Sequence record: SRR20825006_2320
DNA: 40,830 nt
Strand: one strand, 5' to 3'
Under the pieces are notes generated by a model. The model worked only from the letters and a program-made list of their open reading frames with translations, had not been told where the DNA came from and searched no databases. This document shows positions 27,767-37,398 of this stretch, piece after piece. A program made the translations under genes and the position numbers. The stretch's first letter is position 1. Every line of letters starts with the position of its first letter.

Positions 27767-28687
27767 CTATATGGCGTCGGCCATTGTTTGTACGCTTTCC
27801 AAAACGGCATCTTTGTCTCCGCGCAACAAACCCCGAGCTTCATTGCTATCTTTTGCGACACACAGACCGGTTGAAATGGCATCCGCAAGTGCTGCGTTTT
27901 GGGCACTGACGGAGACCTGCCGGATGTCCGTTTCCAAAATTCCGCCATGGCGCGGGTCAAGGATGTGGCCGATTTGGCCAGTCGCGCTCAAGCGCGTTCC
28001 AAAAGGCGCGGATGTGGCCAAGGCCCGCCCCGTCAAGGCGCGCGTTTTCACTTCGCCCGCGATCGTAACAGGCCAAGCGGCTTGCCCATGCGGCGCGCCC
28101 ATGGCAATGATTTCCCCGGTATCTATCAGCACATCTTCGATCCCCTCGCGGCGCATCAATACCGCGATGCGGTCGGCGATATACCCCTGTGCAATCCCAT
28201 TCAGTGTCAATTGCTGACCCGCTGACATACGAATGCCTTCGCTGTCAAATGACACACGATCAAATCCAATCCGTGCCCGTGCGGCGGATATTTCGGTATC
28301 ATCAGCGGGGCGACCCATACTATAGGCATCGGCCAATACGCGCCAAAGCGGTTGTACGGTCGGGTCAAATCGACCCTCCGTGAGGCGATGCGCGTGGCGG
28401 GCGATGGACAGGCATTCCAGGAGTTCAAACGAGGGGGCCTCCAGATGGCCTGCGGCGTTCAGTTGGACGAGCTCCGAATGGCTGCGATACAGGCTAAAAA
28501 TATCTTCTAGGCGGGAGATTTCTCCAAGCGCACGTTGAGTGATGCCCTTTGCATTCGGATGATCAAGGATGATCCGCGCACGGGCCCCCAATGCGGTGCC
28601 CTGCCATTGAAACGCATGCGCGGACGGGGCGATCAGGCAAGACGCGCAAGCCATTGAAATAAAACGGCGACGGGTCATAAATGTCAT
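27767..28687 (-). CDS. nosX: NosX, ApbE-family FAD:protein FMN transferase
   Basis: Tat motif TRRRFI, FDPTVQPLW, LNGIAQGY, ALATS, GHILDP, ADAIST. Confidence 0.93.
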   Translation of the reverse strand: MTFMTRRRFISMACASCLIAPSAHAFQWQGTALGARARIILDHPNAKGITQRALGEISRLEDIFSLYRSHSELVQLNAAGHLEAPSFELLECLSIARHAHRLTEGRFDPTVQPLWRVLADAYSMGRPADDTEISAARARIGFDRVSFDSEGIRMSAGQQLTLNGIAQGYIADRIAVLMRREGIEDVLIDTGEIIAMGAPHGQAAWPVTIAGEVKTRALTGRALATSAPFGTRLSATGQIGHILDPRHGGILETDIRQVSVSAQNAALADAISTGLCVAKDSNEARGLLRGDKDAVLESVQTMADAI

Positions 28688-28688
28688 A

Positions 28689-29252
28689 TCAGTTTGTCCT
28701 GTCTTTGGGGGCCAATGCGCGCAATCGGTTGGCAATGTCGGATTGATTTGAGGGTGCCGGCTCTACGGCGGCCGCCGCCAATACATCTTGTGCTGTGATG
28801 TCCTCAAACCGGAGCAAAGTACCGCCGTGGCGCTTGGTAAAGGCGACGGCAGCCGCCTTGCTGGAAAAGGGTACGAACTCAGAGGCTTCCATGCCGCCCA
28901 TTTGATCGGAGCCCACCACATAAATAGCTTGGTCCGCGGCGATCCAAGCGCCCGGTTTGGCCCAACTTGCCGCATCTGCCATATCCTGAACATAGGCGAC
29001 CTCTACGGCGTGGCTCTGTTCAGGCATGTGCAGATAGGCGATTGTGTCTCTGACCTGAGAGAAAAAGATCGGGGCAAGCAACCCTGCAAGGTGGATTTGT
29101 CCCTTGGGACCGTCATGTTCCAGCAGGTCCATCTGACAATAGTACCCCACGGCTTCTGCTGACATCTCAACCGGCTGTGGCAATGCGACGGTTTCTGTCT
29201 TGCACGCGCTCAGCGACAGCACCGCCAATGCGATCAAAATACTCCGCGTCAT
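28689..29252 (-). CDS. nosL: NosL copper chaperone lipoprotein
   Basis: Lipobox LSAC, YCQM..HDGPKGQ, MGGM...VPF motifs. Confidence 0.93.
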   Translation of the reverse strand: MTRSILIALAVLSLSACKTETVALPQPVEMSAEAVGYYCQMDLLEHDGPKGQIHLAGLLAPIFFSQVRDTIAYLHMPEQSHAVEVAYVQDMADAASWAKPGAWIAADQAIYVVGSDQMGGMEASEFVPFSSKAAAVAFTKRHGGTLLRFEDITAQDVLAAAAVEPAPSNQSDIANRLRALAPKDRTN

Positions 29253-30079
29253 GGTTCGACCCTTTCAAATGCGCCCCGTGCAAGACCAGCGGCCAGAACC
29301 ACCCAGACCAGCAGCGATGCCAGTGGCTTCCAGAGCGCGATGGATTGCGCCGCTCCCGCGAGGCCGGACGCCGCGCCAACCGCGTCGGATGCGGCCAAGT
29401 TATAAATCCGGAAAGCGTCAGCGGGATTGGCAACCAACAACCATGGGAACACATCTGTGGTGAAACCCCCGCCATCGTCCGCGACAATGGCCGCCAGAAG
29501 TCCCAGATCGTAGAGAACAACCGTTACCAACCATACCCCAATGGCAAGCCCGGCGGCAGCCGAAGGGCGACGCGACAGGCCAGAGATCATCTGTCCGAGC
29601 GATAAAAACACCGCCCCCAGCAACACCGAGGTCCAGATCAATCGCAGCAGGGCTGGCAGCCCGTCCATTGCGTCCCCACCGCTGAACCAAAAGGCGACCA
29701 GCGCTGCTGTGCCATAGCCGAGAGAGACAGCAACGATAATCAGCACCAGTTGCGCAGACAGCTTGCCGACCAGCAATTCGCCCCGGCTGACCGGATAGGC
29801 CAGATACAACGGCAGCGTCCCCCGCTCGATCTCTCCGGCGATGGCGTCGAATGAGATGACCAACGCCATCAACGGCACCAAATAAACCGACAAAGACGTC
29901 AGGCTGGCAACGGTGACGGACAAGCGATCGGCCCCCACCGCGCCAGTTGGGGCCGCTCCGGCAATGGCCAAAACCAGAGAAAACAACACCATCAAGACAA
30001 CCGCGATGCTGAGCCAGCGATTGCGCAGGGCAATGGCAAATTCAATTTGGAAGGTGGAAAGCACGCGCAACAACATCAC
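29249..30079 (-). CDS. nosY: NosY ABC permease
   Basis: RNRW, YLVPL, DAIAGEIERGTL, NPADAFR motifs. Confidence 0.94.
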   Translation of the reverse strand: MMLLRVLSTFQIEFAIALRNRWLSIAVVLMVLFSLVLAIAGAAPTGAVGADRLSVTVASLTSLSVYLVPLMALVISFDAIAGEIERGTLPLYLAYPVSRGELLVGKLSAQLVLIIVAVSLGYGTAALVAFWFSGGDAMDGLPALLRLIWTSVLLGAVFLSLGQMISGLSRRPSAAAGLAIGVWLVTVVLYDLGLLAAIVADDGGGFTTDVFPWLLVANPADAFRIYNLAASDAVGAASGLAGAAQSIALWKPLASLLVWVVLAAGLARGAFERVEP

Positions 30080-30966
30080 GCAGCGCTCCTGCTGATTTGA
30101 ACATAGATGTCGTCAAGACTTGGCGGCAGAATGTCGAAATCCTGTATCATATCGCCCAAGGCCGCGATCCGGGCCAGAATACCCAGCTTGTCGGCCTGCA
30201 TGCAGTCCACTATCAAGATCTCGCCCGCGTGTCGCGCCTCTGGAAAGACGCTGACGATCTGCGGTGAACATCCTTGTCGGGGGTGTATATGTACAGTCAA
30301 AGGCAGGTCTGCGCCGCTGCGCAGCTTGCTGAGCGATCCGTCGGCGACCTTGCGGCCCTTGGACAAGATCGCGATGCGGTCGGTGCGGACCTCCACCTCG
30401 GACAGCGCATGGGACGACATCAATATTGCCGTACCGCGCGAGGCCAATTCATCGAGCAAGGCATAAAATTCCCGGCGCGACACGGGATCAAGCCCCGTTG
30501 TCGGTTCGTCCAGCACCATCAGCGCGGGACTGCCGATTAACGCCTGCGCGAGGCCAACACGTTGTCGCATGCCTTTTGAATATGTCCCGATCCGCCGCCG
30601 GGCTGCATCAGCCAGCCCGACCTTGGCTAGCAATCCGTCCGCTTCTTGTGCCGAACGGCCGCGCAGCCGCAGAAAGTGGTGGATTTGTTCACGCCCTGTC
30701 AGCGCGGGATGAAAGGCGATGTTTTCTGGCAGATAAGCGGTCAGATCACGCGCACTGCGCGACCCCGGTGCGTAGCCCGAGATCGTGAGGGTGCCAGAGG
30801 ACGGCGGCAGCAGGCCCAACACCATTTTCATCAACGTCGATTTGCCTGCGCCATTGTGGCCCAGCAAGGCCACGCGTTCGCCCGGCGCGATGGATAAATC
30901 CACGTTGTCCAATGCGGCTTGGCCGCCGTAGCGCTTAGTCAGGTTGGAAATCTGTAGCATCGTCAT
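30076..30966 (-). CDS. nosF: NosF ABC ATPase
   Basis: GHNGAGKS, YSKGMRQR, LDEPTTGLDP. Confidence 0.94.
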   Translation of the reverse strand: MTMLQISNLTKRYGGQAALDNVDLSIAPGERVALLGHNGAGKSTLMKMVLGLLPPSSGTLTISGYAPGSRSARDLTAYLPENIAFHPALTGREQIHHFLRLRGRSAQEADGLLAKVGLADAARRRIGTYSKGMRQRVGLAQALIGSPALMVLDEPTTGLDPVSRREFYALLDELASRGTAILMSSHALSEVEVRTDRIAILSKGRKVADGSLSKLRSGADLPLTVHIHPRQGCSPQIVSVFPEARHAGEILIVDCMQADKLGILARIAALGDMIQDFDILPPSLDDIYVQISRSAA

Positions 30967-32263
30967 GGCTTGCTCCGGTTGCCCAATGTGGTGTCGATTG
31001 GGCGAGTAACAATAGGTTCTGTGGTATCGTCAGCTTGGGTGCCACAATCAGCGGGTGACTGTCGATCACGCCCCCGATCGCGGTCGCGGGGAACTGTTCT
31101 TGGCTCCAACGGACGAGCTGAACCGCTGGCGACCCGATCAGCAGCTTGGCGGCGGGTTGAGACCACAGGATGTGGTCCATCACATCGTTGGGGCGATAGG
31201 TGCTGTCGGCGCGATCATCTCCGTTCAGGTCGAACGACGGATGATCCGACCAGAAATTCCCACGCCCCTCAAAGCTCCACTCGACATCACTTGCGCCAAC
31301 ATATTTGACCTGTGTGTGGTTGCCGATAAAAGCATTGCCCGTGACGGTGTTGCGCTCAGACCCGGCGGTGAAATGAATCCCGATATCGCAGCCATTAAAG
31401 CTGTTTTCAGCCAGCAGGTTGTTGTGTGAATTATAGACAAAAGCGCATTTTTCCGCGCCGCCGCTTACCTGATTGGCAAAAACATCGGACTTGTTGGTAT
31501 AGTTCAGCATCACGCCATAATCGCGGTCGTTGATCGAGATATTGTCACGCGCCACGATCCGGTCGGAATACATCATGGCAAACCCAAGATGGTTGCCGAT
31601 ACTGACATTGCCCGAGATTTCGCTGTCATTGGTATACATGTAATGCACAGCAAAGCGCAGGTCTCGAAACAGATTGCCGCGATAGATGTTGTGTTTGGAC
31701 ACGTTGGAAAATATCCCATCACGGCCATAGCGAATGTCGTTGTCTTTGACGATCGATCCCGGTGCATTCCAGACATAGACACCGTTTCCACGATCATTCA
31801 TACGCGAGAGTTGCAGGCCCTCGATCCGGTTGCCTTGGACCAGCGCATCACGGGCACCATGAATATCGACACCAATCAAATTGCCCTTGAGATCGTTGTT
31901 CAACACCTGCGCACCGCGTGCCTTTTGGGTCAGCTTGACCCCGGCATCTCCCGGCTCATGAACGCGGCCTGAATTGATCAGCGTCAGCGATTGAATGGTT
32001 ACATCGGGGGCGTCAACCGTAACGACAGATCCCACCCCGCCTGCGTCGATGATAGCCCCTGTCGTGCCAGTCAATGTCAGTGGGATTTCAATATGCACCG
32101 GGCCCGCATAGTGGCCCGATGCGAGAACAATCTCGTCCCCCGCACGTGCCGCCCACAACGCGCGCGCTAGCGCACCGTCACCGGGTTGCACATCAATCCG
32201 GTCCGCCAAAGCAGGCAAGGCGGCACAGATCAACGCAAAGGCAAGAGGGACGAGACGTGTCAT
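30935..32263 (-). CDS. nosD: NosD periplasmic maturation protein
   Basis: RGNGVYVWN, RDGIF, LRFAVHYMY, GIHFTAGSE, GNFWSD; start overlaps the nosZ stop (TGATG). Confidence 0.95.
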   Translation of the reverse strand: MTRLVPLAFALICAALPALADRIDVQPGDGALARALWAARAGDEIVLASGHYAGPVHIEIPLTLTGTTGAIIDAGGVGSVVTVDAPDVTIQSLTLINSGRVHEPGDAGVKLTQKARGAQVLNNDLKGNLIGVDIHGARDALVQGNRIEGLQLSRMNDRGNGVYVWNAPGSIVKDNDIRYGRDGIFSNVSKHNIYRGNLFRDLRFAVHYMYTNDSEISGNVSIGNHLGFAMMYSDRIVARDNISINDRDYGVMLNYTNKSDVFANQVSGGAEKCAFVYNSHNNLLAENSFNGCDIGIHFTAGSERNTVTGNAFIGNHTQVKYVGASDVEWSFEGRGNFWSDHPSFDLNGDDRADSTYRPNDVMDHILWSQPAAKLLIGSPAVQLVRWSQEQFPATAIGGVIDSHPLIVAPKLTIPQNLLLLAQSTPHWATGASHDDATDFQPD

Positions 32264-34203
32264 CAGGCTTTCGGCTCCACAAGCATACGGCCGCGCATTT
32301 CCATGTGCAGGGCATGGCAGAACCACTGGCAATAGTACCAGTACACGCCGGGTTTTGCGGCGATGAAGGTGACCGACGCGGTCGCCTGCGGCCCGATTTC
32401 CATCGCAACGCCGTGATTGCCCAAAGTGAACCCGTGGGTCAGATCGTCGATGTCATCAAGGTTGGTGACATAGACGGTCACCTCGTCTCCCTCTTTGACG
32501 GTAAAGCTCGACAGGCTGAACTCTGGTGCTTGGCTGGACATCCACACCCGAACCTTATTGCCATCGCGGATGACCGTGTCTTGCCAGTCATCAATGTCGA
32601 TGCCATCAATTTCGGCCTGTGCGCGGGCGTCAGCCCACATCGGATCATGGCGATCCCAAACATCCACCGGGTTGACGATATCACGGCGCACAAGGATCAC
32701 ATCATGCGGTTCCGCAAAGGTTGGCCCGTCATGTACCACCTTCATGTCATCGGTCGAAATGTCGATGATCTGCTCGTTTTCGGGCTTCAACGGGCCAACG
32801 TTGATGAACCGGTCCTTGGAGAACTTATTAAGTGAAATCAACCAGTTGCCATCTGCTTCCTTGGTTTCGCCCATGGTGGTATGGTTGTGACCGGGTTGAT
32901 AATGCACATCGACCTTCGAGACGATGGGATCGACATCTGCGCCAGCGTAGGCCTCGACGGCCTTGGCAATGTCCCACTTTACGATCTGACTGTCGAGGAA
33001 CAGCGTCGTATAGGCAAACCCTTTGCCATCAAATGCGGTGTGAAGTGGACCCAGACCCAACTCCGGCTCAGCCACCACAGCCGAGCGCGGATCGGCGTCT
33101 TCCTCGAACAGCGCGTCCAGCTTGGTCACATCCAGCACCGTGCAGGTCGGCGATAGCTTGCCCGCGATCACTACGTGCTTCATGTCTGGTGCCGTGTTGA
33201 TCCCATGCGGGCTGTTGGGCACCGGAATGTACCGGGTGTATTTCTTGTTTTGGCCTTTACGTCCGTCAATCACCTTGACGCCGTTCAGCTCGATGTAATC
33301 CCCTGCCGCGATACCTGCTTCGATCTCCGCGAGGTTGAACACCACCGCGTGGTCGCGTTCGGCTTCCATCATCTCCGGTAGGGTCATGCCCATTTCCGAG
33401 TTATACGAGGTCGAAAAGGCATATTTACCCTGATAGTCGCAATCGGTGTTGTCGAGGTTGCCCGACACCATCACTTGCCACGCGATTTCCATCGTGTCGC
33501 CGTCAAGCGCGGTGAAAAAGTTTACATATTTTTCCGGTTCATCCAGTACAGACCCGTCATTCACCATTGGCGTTTCGTCTTCACCATTGGCAAACACATA
33601 ACCGGTCCGCGGGAATTTCTGTGGACGCAGGCCGTGGATCGCCTTGGCATTGGGGATGTCGACGATCTTGTCGCATTTCATCACATCACAACGCACGCGG
33701 GCCACACGGGTGTTGGCCTTGTCGTTCACGAAAATAAAACGGCCATCATAGGTGCCATCGGTGAAGGACATGTGCGGGTGGTGCAAATCGCCGTTGTCGT
33801 GGACCTTTTTGCCCTGCGCCGCCAGATATTCCTTGGTCTGGGGCATCATGTCTTGGGTCAGGATCTTGAGGCTTTCGTTGGTCTGGCCCCACCCTGTCGC
33901 GGAGCAGCGATTGAACACGGGCACCCGCATCAATTCGCGCATGGACGGGAAGCCAAGGATACGCAATTCGCCGGTTTGGCCCGAGGACCAGAAGCCATAG
34001 TAATCGTCCAACTCACCCGGCACCGGGCTCAGGTGATCGCTGGCCTGTGCCATCGCTGCGCCGGTGCCTGCCGCTGTCGCCGCGACAGCACCACCTGCCA
34101 ACAAGCCCAGCCTGCCACTCGTGCCGCCCAAAAGTGCAGCACCGGTGGCCGAGGCCCCTATAAACCCGCGCCGACTTAGGCCTTTTTTGTCCACATCAGA
34201 CAT
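32263..34203 (-). CDS. nosZ: Tat-dependent (clade I) nitrous oxide reductase
   Basis: SRRGFIG Tat signal; CuZ His motifs DLHHPH, IHG, PHG, GPLH, QPGH, EPHD; Cu[14 protein letters not shown]. Confidence 0.98.
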
Positions 34204-36430
34204 CTTGAAGCTCCTTTCTTGAGTTCTTCACGTTGGGATGATTTGCAATTCGAGCGTCCAAAGCCGCATCAGATGAGCTGGCCTTGGCGCGCCGTTTCAT
34301 TTTCTTAATGACAACGGGGCATTTTGCTTCGGATTGGTACAACACCTGACAGTGCAGGCAGTTGATGCATTCGTTCGGATTGATTTCACCGGTTGGGTGG
34401 ATCGCATCGACGGGGCATTCATGGGCACAGGTTTGGCAGGGGTTGCCGCATTCATGATACCGTTTCAGCCAGTCAAACATCCGCAGTCGTGCCGGGATGG
34501 CCAGCGCCGCGCCCAGCGGGCACAGATAGCGGCAAAAGAACCGTTCGACGAAAAGCCCCGCGATCAGCAAGGCCGCGACATAGGCGACAAAAGGCCAAGC
34601 GCGCATGAATTTCAGAATGATGGCGGTCTTGAACGGTTCGATTTCGGCCAAATGTTCGGCCTGCTCAATGGAGTAGAGCGAGACCCCGAACAGCCCGAGG
34701 AAGATCATGTATTTGATCGGCCAGAGGCGTTCGTGCAGCCCCCACGGCAGTTGCACCTGTGGGATGTGCAGCGCGCGGCCAATGCGATTGGTCAATTCTT
34801 GCAAAGCACCGAAGGGGCAAAGCCAGCCGCAATAAGCGCCACGCCCCCAGAACAGCAACGCTGTGGCGACGGCAAACCACAAAATGAACGTCAGTGGGTC
34901 CAACAGGAACGCTTGCCAGCTAAAATCCGTGACCAACGCGCCGAACAGTGCCATCAGGTTTACGACTGAAAGCTGCGCATTGGCGTACCAGCCCAGAAAC
35001 ACCAGAGTGACAGTCAGGAATGACATCCGGAACCAGAAATAGAACCGCGCCGAGCGTGTCACATATTGCTGGAAAAAGAACACCAGCGTCAGAACCGCCA
35101 GCATCGCCAACAATCCCGCAATTTCGATGGTTTTATCTTCCCAAATCCGCTTCCAAAGTGCGGATTGCGCAGCGGCTTCGACCTGTTCTCCTGACGCCGA
35201 GGCCGTCGATTGTGTGGGCTGTTCAGATACGGTCTTGCGTTGGTATTGTGATGGCAGCTGATAGCTGAGTTCAAACGTGGTAAAAACCTTTTCGATGGCC
35301 GCAACGTCGCGGTGCACCAAGAGCTGAATGCGGAACGGCAACGTTGGATCAAAGCCACTGTCGGCTGGGATTTTGAACAGATCGCGTTCGGTAAACTCTG
35401 GTGCGTCATCGACCGCAATGAGCCCCATCCGACGGTGACCACGATCGCGAAAACGGACGGTCACGTCGTCTTGGATCAGCACGATCCGGTCAAAGATACC
35501 GCCGCGCACATAGCCCGATCCCTTAAAGGAATATAGGCCACGCCCGACGATGACGATGGCGTTTTCACCTGGCTCCAACCAGCCCTGAAGATTGCTGTTT
35601 TCCGCGTCGCCCAAAATGGCTTTACCGATGCTGGGCACGCTGACCAGTGCGGCTTGCATGTCGATAAAAGTGGCCTCTGTCGGCTCTGTCAGGGCCCGTT
35701 TGGCGGTGCGCGGATCGTTCATCGCGGCAAAAGCGGCGTTGATTTGCCCCACGTCCAGCGACAGACGTCTGACAGTGCCATCGCCTTCCATCTCCATCCA
35801 GCTGTCTGGTGCCGTGGCGTCTGGGTCGATCTCAAAACTGTGGTCGGCTGATGTCGTCGCCTGTAACCCACCCAGACCCAACGCCCGGGCCACTTTGAGC
35901 CCCGCGCGGATGATACCGTCGTCAATCACCATAACGGTCACGGTCGCGCCCGAAATAATGTTAAGATCATGGGCAGAGCCACGCGCTTGGGCCTCTGCCA
36001 CAAGATCAATGCCGCGATAATCATGCACCATCGCTTTGATCTTGCTGTCAGGAATGCCGATCAACACGATCGGCTCGGAATGCTTGATCAGTTCGACGCC
36101 CAGAACCCGCGCGTCTTGATCGACGGCCACCATCGTATGGATCGGTTTTCCAGAATAGCCCGTGGTTCCGACGAAATCCGAAGTGATGAAAACATATCCG
36201 ATTTCAGCGCCCTGGCGTAGCAAAGGTGCCACGGGAACATCGTCACGAATCGGACCAAAGGCGTCACTGCCCTCGACAATTTCATTGGGATTTATCTGAG
36301 ATATATACTGTGAAAGCACAGTCGGCGCTGTTTGCGAGAGCGCGGGATTGGCCGAAAGACTCGCCAGCAGCATCAAGGCCAGCGGAGCCAGTAAGCGAAA
36401 GATCGTTAGGTCTCGTGGTGTGGGCAACAT
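34196..36430 (-). CDS. nosR: NosR flavo-iron-sulfur membrane protein
   Basis: [14 protein letters not shown] (FMN-Thr), two CX3CP motifs, two 4Fe-4S motifs; ATG 36430 lies 1 nt after the upstream stop (alternative GTG 36460). Confidence 0.96.
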
Positions 36431-36431
36431 A

Positions 36432-36827
36432 TCAGGAAATGACCTTGCTAGGGGGCGCACGCGGCATTTTTATCGCTTGGCGCGAGATCAAGCGGATTGT
36501 TTCGGCGGCAAGACCCGCAACCAACTGTGTTTGAACAGATTTGCGGGGGAATGCAGCGGCGCTCGGCAAATCGAAACCGTAGATCAGAGTGCCGTGGGTA
36601 CAATGGCCGCAGGTGCTCTCCACAGGATCAACTGGGGTGCCATTTTGATCAAGCGTCACCTCGGCCTGACCGTTTTGGCCGCAGATCACCAATGTGGTCT
36701 GCCCGACGCGCGCAATTTCATGCGCCACCTGAAAATATCCAGCCGCCGACGTTGCGAGCGCAAGGCACACAGTCATTAGACCACCAAACATAAGGCCGCC
36801 AAAGGAAAGAATCAAGGAACGTCTCAT
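36432..36827 (-). CDS. NosC / DUF2946-like small protein with CXXC and C-terminal RAPP motif
   Basis: Hydrophobic N-terminus, LVICG, CGHCTH, ...KMPRAPPSKVIS*; directly upstream of nosR, where Paracoccus has nosC. Family call from motif recall. Confidence 0.72.
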   Translation of the reverse strand: MRRSLILSFGGLMFGGLMTVCLALATSAAGYFQVAHEIARVGQTTLVICGQNGQAEVTLDQNGTPVDPVESTCGHCTHGTLIYGFDLPSAAAFPRKSVQTQLVAGLAAETIRLISRQAIKMPRAPPSKVIS

Positions 36828-36834
36828 GGCGCTA

Positions 36835-36876
36835 ACATTAGGTGCGCCGTGTGACGCCTTATTTGCGCTGGAACAA
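36835..36876 (-). promoter_or_regulatory. Putative FNR/DNR/NnrR-dependent promoter of the nos operon
   Basis: TTGTTCCAGCGCAA (TTG-N8-CAA, 36876-36863) centred 42.5 nt upstream of ATG 36827; TAATGT -10-like hexamer 7 nt upstream of the ATG. Confidence 0.6.
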
Positions 36877-37119
36877 TGTTCGAAGGAAAAGATCCTTGAG
36901 CCGAATGCATGGTGTCATCGGGACCTCGGCGCAGGCGACGGCCGATATCCTCCATTGGACCGATACCAGCCCTTGGAGGGTACACCGCAAATTGACCTTC
37001 TGAATTCACCCCGTACAACGGCGAGGACGTCTACCGCAAAGGCTTGGCGTAGCCCGTCCATGAAGACGACCCAAGATCTCAAATTCCGATGACGTCCGAA
37101 ATAACGAGAGCGTTCTCGC

Positions 37120-37398
37120 GCCCGACAACAGGGCGGGCATGGCGCGGGCGCGGGGGCCGATCTCAAGATACTCCAGCAATTCCTGCACACGGCTTTTACC
37201 CGCCAGTTGCAACACCAAAGCCACGGTATCGGTGGCATTCAGGAAGGGCAGCAGGTTGTGGGCCTGAAAGATAAAACCGATCTTGTCGAGCCGCAGACGG
37301 CGCAGATCACCACGCAGCCAGCGATTGCCATAAACCTGTTCGCCATCAAGGCTGACCTGCCCAATGGATGGATCAACGATGCAACCGATGATGGTCAT
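37120..37398 (-). pseudogene. Fragment of a LolD/MacB-type ABC ATPase
   Basis: IIGCIVDPSIGQV..LRLDKIGFIFQAHNLLPFL..PALLSG; lacks Walker A and Walker B. Confidence 0.75.

Follow-up and report, generated by a model that had tools for sequence, protein, structure and literature searches.

The window, by which we mean the whole 40,830-nt stretch of DNA analysed here, carries a nitrous oxide reductase cluster on its minus strand. The gene order assigned with Pfam is nosC-R-Z-D-F-Y-L-X, which corresponds to nosCRZDFYLX in the Paracoccus nomenclature. A previous reading of the sequence alone (the sequence-only reading) had placed a short ORF at the head of the N2O reductase operon, and this ORF is indeed the first gene of the cluster, directly upstream of nosR.

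36432–36827, minus strand: ORF in the nosC position (131 aa, ATG to TGA), a divergent DUF2946 (CruR/CutF-type) putative exported leader
34196–36430, minus strand: nosR (744 aa), with FMN_bind and Fer4_5 domains (Pfam)
32263–34203, minus strand: nosZ of clade I type; the translation shows a twin-arginine leader
27767–32332, minus strand: nosD, nosF, nosY, nosL and nosX (ApbE), from Pfam

An 8-nt overlap (34196–34203) joins the end of nosR to the beginning of nosZ, and tight junctions continue along the cluster. The 740-nt gap between rpe and nosC contains a 130-aa ORF (37006–37398, minus strand), which by eye is partly ABC ATPase-like and had no Pfam match at E ≤ 1e-3; it could be what is left of a gene, or have arisen by chance.

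The nosC ORF and its junction with nosR comprise the following elements.

36741–36827, minus strand: predicted export signal, residues 1–29, with MRR, a hydrophobic core and ATSA/AG (by inspection only)
36678–36689, minus strand: VICG, residues 47–50, with I48 and C49 invariant in 61 homologues
36600–36611, minus strand: CGHC (C73, C76), putative metal site, from the sequence
36462–36599, minus strand: linker, residues 77–122, conserved in length and poorly conserved in sequence
36450–36461, minus strand: RAPP, putative arrest motif, R123–P126, with the P- and A-site assignment taken from ApdA/ApdP (PMC10951233) and the CruR toeprint (PMC12992588)
36435–36449, minus strand: five-codon tail SKVIS, which includes AAGG
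36443–36446, minus strand: AAGG, the sole SD-like element for nosR, 12 nt upstream of the nosR ATG
36428–36434, minus strand: junction TGA-T-ATG, with the nosC stop (36434–36432), one base and the nosR start (36430–36428)

The signal-like N-terminus, VICG, CGHC, RAPP, AAGG and 1-nt gap, from which the sequence-only reading had proposed a copper-sensing ribosome-arrest leader, are all present at these positions. By eye, the N-terminus consists of MRR, about 22 hydrophobic residues and ATSAAG, which would fit either a cleaved signal or a membrane anchor. Within it lies a tandem five-residue repeat, GGLMF-GGLMT (36771–36800, minus strand), a five-residue insertion as compared to all four close homologues. 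The intervening segment between CGHC and RAPP is 46 residues long. In full, the metal motif reads CGHCTHG (36591–36611, minus strand), as compared to CxHCxDC in most relatives; the replacement of the third Cys by Gly and of the Asp by His is shared only with a 96%-identical relative (P0001). Judged from these substitutions, the ligand set, or metal binding itself, may be altered at this site relative to the subfamily.

Family membership and motif conservation

The assignment of the ORF to the DUF2946/CruR/CutF class had been proposed without a database search. Against the DUF2946 profile (PF11162), the ORF itself scored 16.7 bits (E 0.012), below the Pfam gathering cut-off of 23.7, although the alignment covers profile positions 7–117 of 117. 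A word-indexed protein search yielded four relatives at 54–96% identity, all of which carry KMPRAPPSK at the C-terminus. The profile of these five sequences was then run exhaustively over 1.84 billion representatives, and retrieved 122 proteins at E ≤ 1e-3. From the short hits we assembled a 61-row alignment, consisting of the nosC ORF and 60 of the best-scoring proteins; long multidomain hits, two truncated proteins and the weaker end of the list were left out. When scanned singly, 44 of these 61 homologues matched PF11162 at E ≤ 0.01. The HMM comparison thus fails for the ORF on its own and succeeds for most of its homologues.

In the ESM Atlas, the named clusters closest to the protein are those of DUF2946 (feature score 0.96), and 18 of 30 matches belong to the DUF2946 set; the Atlas model of the protein is poorly ordered (pLDDT 0.58, pTM 0.29). 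The only NCBIfam hit was at noise level (FraI, E 0.059, 13 bits where the cut-off is 225), and tblastn of the ORF against the PLSDB plasmids gave no match. The homologues are named 'hypothetical protein' or 'DUF2946 family protein' in the databases, and a search of the loci with the five-row alignment provided two relatives with organism names, from Rhodobacteraceae bacterium KMM 6894 and Vannielia sp. Homology and sequence hallmarks agree, and by transitive homology the nosC ORF can soundly be assigned to the CruR/CutF (DUF2946) class, as a true though divergent member.

The two protein searches together collected 124 proteins, 119 of which are short (≤300 aa). R[AG]PP is the last R.PP motif in 112 of these 119 short relatives (RGPP in 72, RAPP in 40), with RDPP in two, RPPP in one and no such motif in four. 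CxxC is absent from four of the 115 relatives bearing R.PP; in 110 of the 111 having both motifs, it lies 42–48 residues upstream of the Arg. RAPP and CxxC are therefore conserved in kind and in spacing. In the 61-row alignment, I48, C49, C76, P125 and P126 are invariant, and conservation reaches 90% or more at L59, G63, C73, R123 and the third Cys (position 79). The N-terminal half contains further conserved motifs, TLD..G.PV.P and CxHCxDC. Residues 80–118, on the other hand, have a mean top-residue frequency of 0.25 with a gap frequency of 0.02, and CxxC and the Arg are 43–47 residues apart here. A linker fixed in length and free in sequence is unlike a folded domain, and fits a molecular ruler that spans the distance from a sensing site to the peptidyl-transferase centre. 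The possibility of a chance ORF was ruled out by this conservation.

The closest characterized counterpart is CruR (Bp2923) of Bordetella pertussis, the DUF2946 prototype, which likewise has an export signal, a semiconserved upstream Cys and a CxxC (PMC9426467). Both proteins carry RAPP close to the C-terminus, with only a few residues left before the stop, and both are first in a copper-related operon, with a TonB-dependent transporter downstream of CruR and nosR downstream of the nosC ORF. The spacer between CxxC and RAPP is 45 residues in CruR, where it is functionally required (PMC9426467), and 46 here. CutF of Rhodobacter capsulatus is also alphaproteobacterial; it has a Sec signal and a Cys motif, and its C-terminus bears a proline-rich stalling sequence (PMC9973294); like the nosC ORF, it stands upstream of a periplasmic cuproenzyme system. 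CutF acts in cis only, and its stalling is EF-P sensitive and copper-induced (bioRxiv 10.1101/2025.02.05.636593). With NosC of Paracoccus denitrificans (Pden_4221), the first gene of nosCRZDFYLX, the likeness is one of gene position. ApdA, ApdP and SecM monitor protein export and precede sec/yidC genes, whereas the nosC ORF precedes nosR, and no homology to them was seen outside the motif.

Putative leaders and candidate promoters upstream of nosR

To avoid counting only loci that had been found through the leader, we used the NosR of the window as the query in 301 genomes sampled from the same bacterial family. A NosR match at E ≤ 1e-30 was present in 120 of the 301. Retaining rows with at least 51% identity and the N-terminus on the contig left 63 loci in 61 genomes. 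All of the rows at or below 45% identity, which are NirI-like and other paralogues, were dropped, as were four fragments lacking the N-terminus (G152:C18, G160:C55, G134:C331 and G197:C135) and the second piece of one gene (G172:C627).

With a local HMM built from the 61-row alignment (E < 1e-3), a family member was detected directly upstream of nosR in 39 of the 63 loci. The same HMM detected no family ORF upstream of nosR in the other 24, showing that NosR can be made without it. The nosR-linked leaders carry R[AG]PP in 38 of 39 cases, and RGSP in one. The distance from the leader stop to the nosR start is between −10 and +4 nt in all 39, with an ATGA overlap in 20; since at each locus we assigned nosR the in-frame start closest to the upstream stop, these distances are biased toward small values. 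The chosen starts stand just before the signal-like N-terminus of NosR.

The tail between RxPP and the stop, in contrast, ranges from 3 to 49 codons over the 39 loci.

3–9 codons: 14 loci (5 codons in the window)
12–14 codons: 2 loci
25–27 codons: 12 loci
32–37 codons: 6 loci
39–49 codons: 5 loci

Thus, the alignment of nosR-upstream ORFs upholds the conservation of RAPP and CxxC, but not that of the RAPP-to-nosR spacing. In terms of sequence, the conserved trait across the loci is the stop–start junction, rather than a fixed distance from the stall to nosR. In 25 of the 39 loci, RxPP lies 12–49 codons before the stop, so that hiding of the nosR ribosome-binding site by the stalled ribosome cannot serve as a general mechanism.

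One locus without a family member (L042, G112:C1) has an ORF of about 80 aa with a signal-like N-terminus that overlaps the nosR start (ATGA). This ORF has no match to the family HMM and lacks VIC, CxxC and RxPP, and it may be a degenerate or replaced leader. The nearest genome has at least two further DUF2946-like ORFs (G001:C3:211067-211453, at L001, and G001:C9:118658-118978). The former is a DUF2946 paralogue above the Pfam cut-off that ends in IRAPPLLA and follows a GGDEF-EAL gene; no recognisable copper gene was found within the 1.5 kb covered.

Upstream of the nosC ORF, two candidate promoter elements were identified.

36863–36876, minus strand: candidate FNR/NNR-type box TTGTTCCAGCGCAA (TTG-N8-CAA), matching 7 of 10 consensus positions
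36835–36840, minus strand: possible −10 hexamer TAATGT, at −13 to −8, by inspection

The box is centred 42.5 nt upstream of the nosC ATG, and a better box, 41.5–43.5 nt from centre to ATG, occurs in seven further loci (L006, L007, L009, L023, L041, L048 and L074). In class II FNR/NNR-type promoters, the box is centred at −41.5. Together, the box, the possible hexamer and this geometry predict a transcript start at the nosC ATG or 1 nt before it, and hence a leaderless mRNA. No SD is found upstream of nosC, which fits the leaderless reading. In a subset of the loci including this one, nosC may therefore be translated from a leaderless, NNR/FNR-dependent transcript.

RNA-library contigs from two studies span the nosC/nosR junction at 95–99% identity (X15, 36347–36758; X16, 35900–36724). 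They are compatible with co-transcription of nosC and nosR, with DNA carry-over as another possible source. These contigs stop short of the region upstream of about 36760, a gap that is no evidence for a transcription start.

Among the leaders with long tails, variants such as P0055, P0056, P0097, P0110 and P0124 have LEF[GSR]Q in common, about 20 residues before the end. It is encoded by TTGAGTTTGGTCAA in L013, with TTGATTTTTATCAA at the same place in L023; both are FNR/NNR-type boxes, about 71–74 nt before the nosR start. The conservation of LEF[GSR]Q may reflect an internal nosR promoter within the leader tail.

Proposed arrest geometry and output on nosR

RAPP and RGPP each cause ribosome arrest across many sequence contexts, and motifs of this type are strongly avoided in proteomes (PMC12992588). 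CruR arrests in vitro in the PURE system with one Pro in the P site and another in the A site (PMC12992588), and the stalled state of ApdA and ApdP is the basis for the P- and A-site assignment at RAPP (PMC10951233). With this assignment, the predicted P-site codon in the nosC ORF is that of the first Pro (36455–36453), which places the nosR AUG at +25 and AAGG 9–12 nt after the first base of the codon. A ribosome covers roughly 15 nt ahead of its P site. AAGG is thus inside the covered stretch, and an arrested ribosome would block independent initiation at nosR. The sequence-only reading had predicted a stall about 20 nt before nosR; this geometry fits at the present locus, where the distance is 25 nt and AAGG is covered, but it is not general, as only 14 of the 39 leaders have a short tail. 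An AAGG/GAGG-type element occurs at the same tail position in L012, L018 and L030, and its presence in the first tail codons may explain the S-K/E tail of this subgroup.

On balance, we slightly favour a cis-acting role for the nosC ORF, as a leader that senses metal and controls nosR through ribosome arrest. That the ribosome arrests, that nosR translation is coupled to this ORF, that the signal is copper and which way the response runs are all inferred. The leader would probably gate NosR synthesis, and the output conserved across the loci is probably stall-gated translational coupling, rather than a fixed stall position.

The arrest might instead act on transcription or on the fate of the mRNA, either through Rho-dependent polarity into nosR and nosZ or through stabilization of the nosCR mRNA by the stalled ribosome. 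Rho is used by CruR (PMC9426467), and nosCR transcripts are elevated under copper limitation in P. denitrificans (PMC7660919). However, CruR is followed by a 162-bp intergenic region, in which Rho terminates transcription when copper releases the arrest (PMC9426467), whereas the nosC loci have no such Rho-loading region: stop and start are separated by 1 nt here and lie −10 to +4 nt apart throughout the 39 linked loci. A stop–start junction that is universally tight is a signature of translational coupling, and we regard an effect on transcription or mRNA fate as rather unlikely.

Alternatively, a mature NosC, either exported or anchored in the membrane, could bind copper and function in trans, as a chaperone or as a partner of NosR or NosZ in sensing; its RAPP tail would then be a family relic or no more than a translational pause. 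The well conserved N-terminal half (VICG, TLD..G.PV.P and CxHCxDC) would suit such a protein; moreover, nosC and nosR have been described as acting in the control of how nosZ is transcribed (PMC7660919), and a chaperone role was proposed early for CutF (PMC8456105). Against it stand the residues between the Cys motif and RxPP, which are fixed in length and unconserved in sequence, the retention of R[AG]PP in 112 of 119 relatives despite the strong avoidance of such motifs in proteomes (PMC12992588), and the poorly ordered Atlas model. We therefore consider a function in trans quite improbable.

The established mechanism of CutF, which has CxxxC rather than CxxC, in which a stalled ribosome melts a stem-loop masking the ribosome-binding site, there that of cutO, gains something from the loci with 25–49-codon tails, which lean toward extra structure between RxPP and nosR (z < −2 in 5 of 22), yet it is very improbable for nosR, as the 110 nt around the junction (36391–36500) fold no better than shuffled sequence (z 0.07), the z values of the 14 short-tail loci scatter around 0, and Öztürk et al. 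themselves anticipated that the nos genes with overlaps would work in another way (PMC9973294). At the present locus, we reject a CutF-type hairpin over the nosR ribosome-binding site on the z of 0.07.

For the favoured cis-acting leader, the sequence of events would be as follows. The N-terminal signal would bring the nascent chain to the Sec translocon. At arrest, the C73/H75/C76/H78 site, 46 residues back, would be located just past the exit tunnel, at the membrane. The arrested ribosome would hide AAGG, leaving free 30S subunits unable to start nosR. After release, the ribosome would translate five more codons, terminate at UGA and re-initiate 1 nt further on, at the nosR AUG. The output of NosR would thus be set by the rate of arrest release, which would depend on periplasmic copper at the Cys/His site. 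The two characterized relatives respond to copper with opposite signs, as the arrest is released in CruR and stalling is induced in CutF (bioRxiv 10.1101/2025.02.05.636593). By analogy with CruR, we lean marginally toward copper relieving the arrest.

We tentatively propose, with somewhat less than even confidence, that these leaders represent a third output mode of RAPP, in which the arrest meters the terminating ribosomes that re-initiate at the abutting or overlapping nosR. Periplasmic copper would thus set the level of NosR and, via NosR, both the activity and the expression of N2O reductase. Such a mode would differ from those of SecM and CutF in that no hairpin is melted, and from that of CruR in that the mRNA is not shielded from Rho.

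Relation to previous work and significance

The link between DUF2946 proteins and NosR/N2O reductase has already been published, in the form of a remark from bioinformatics (PMC9973294). Öztürk et al. found N2O reductase among the neighbours of CutF-like genes in 2021 (PMC8456105), and reported in 2023 that, among CutF-like genes with a gap of less than 10 nt or an overlap, nearly 60% lie upstream of N2O reductase/NosR, suggesting that N2OR might be regulated by cotranslational copper sensing of a distinct kind (PMC9973294). These nos-overlapping genes are the same locus class as ours; the available text of the 2023 paper does not analyse their motifs or geometry, count them in a census or set out a mechanism for them. 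We found no paper whose main text joins the name NosC to DUF2946, CruR or CutF, though supplementary lists may name such loci. The word nosC is absent from the available text of the Öztürk papers and of the CruR paper, and neither nosR nor nitrous occurs in the main text, as available, of the 2025 EMBO J survey of RAPP/RGPP uORFs (PMC12992588). The mechanism proposed here is thus plausible from the sequence comparisons and partly anticipated in print.

In P. denitrificans, both nosC and nosR have been reported to take part in the copper response of nosZ transcription, and NosC has been described as copper-responsive and acting in nosZ regulation (PMC7660919, PMC5387054); it has also been called 'putative heme-containing' (PMC9409073). 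A role of nosC in the copper response of nosZ would follow if nosC were needed in cis for NosR synthesis. If the re-initiation mode is true, it would explain why the nosC and nosR mutants of Paracoccus are both reported to affect this response.

The function of NosC is unassigned in the denitrification literature, while its relatives are nascent-chain copper sensors in the copper-homeostasis literature. N2O reductase expression drops when copper is scarce, and to our knowledge this enzyme is the only biological sink for nitrous oxide, a greenhouse gas. Joining the two literatures yields a concrete, testable model of how the copper supply reaches NosR, and the census separates what is conserved (the motifs, the spacer length and the stop–start junction) from what varies (the distance from the stall to nosR). 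Translational coupling as the output of an arrest peptide is, if true, possibly a distinct way of controlling a neighbouring gene, and would, if shown, be a new variant.
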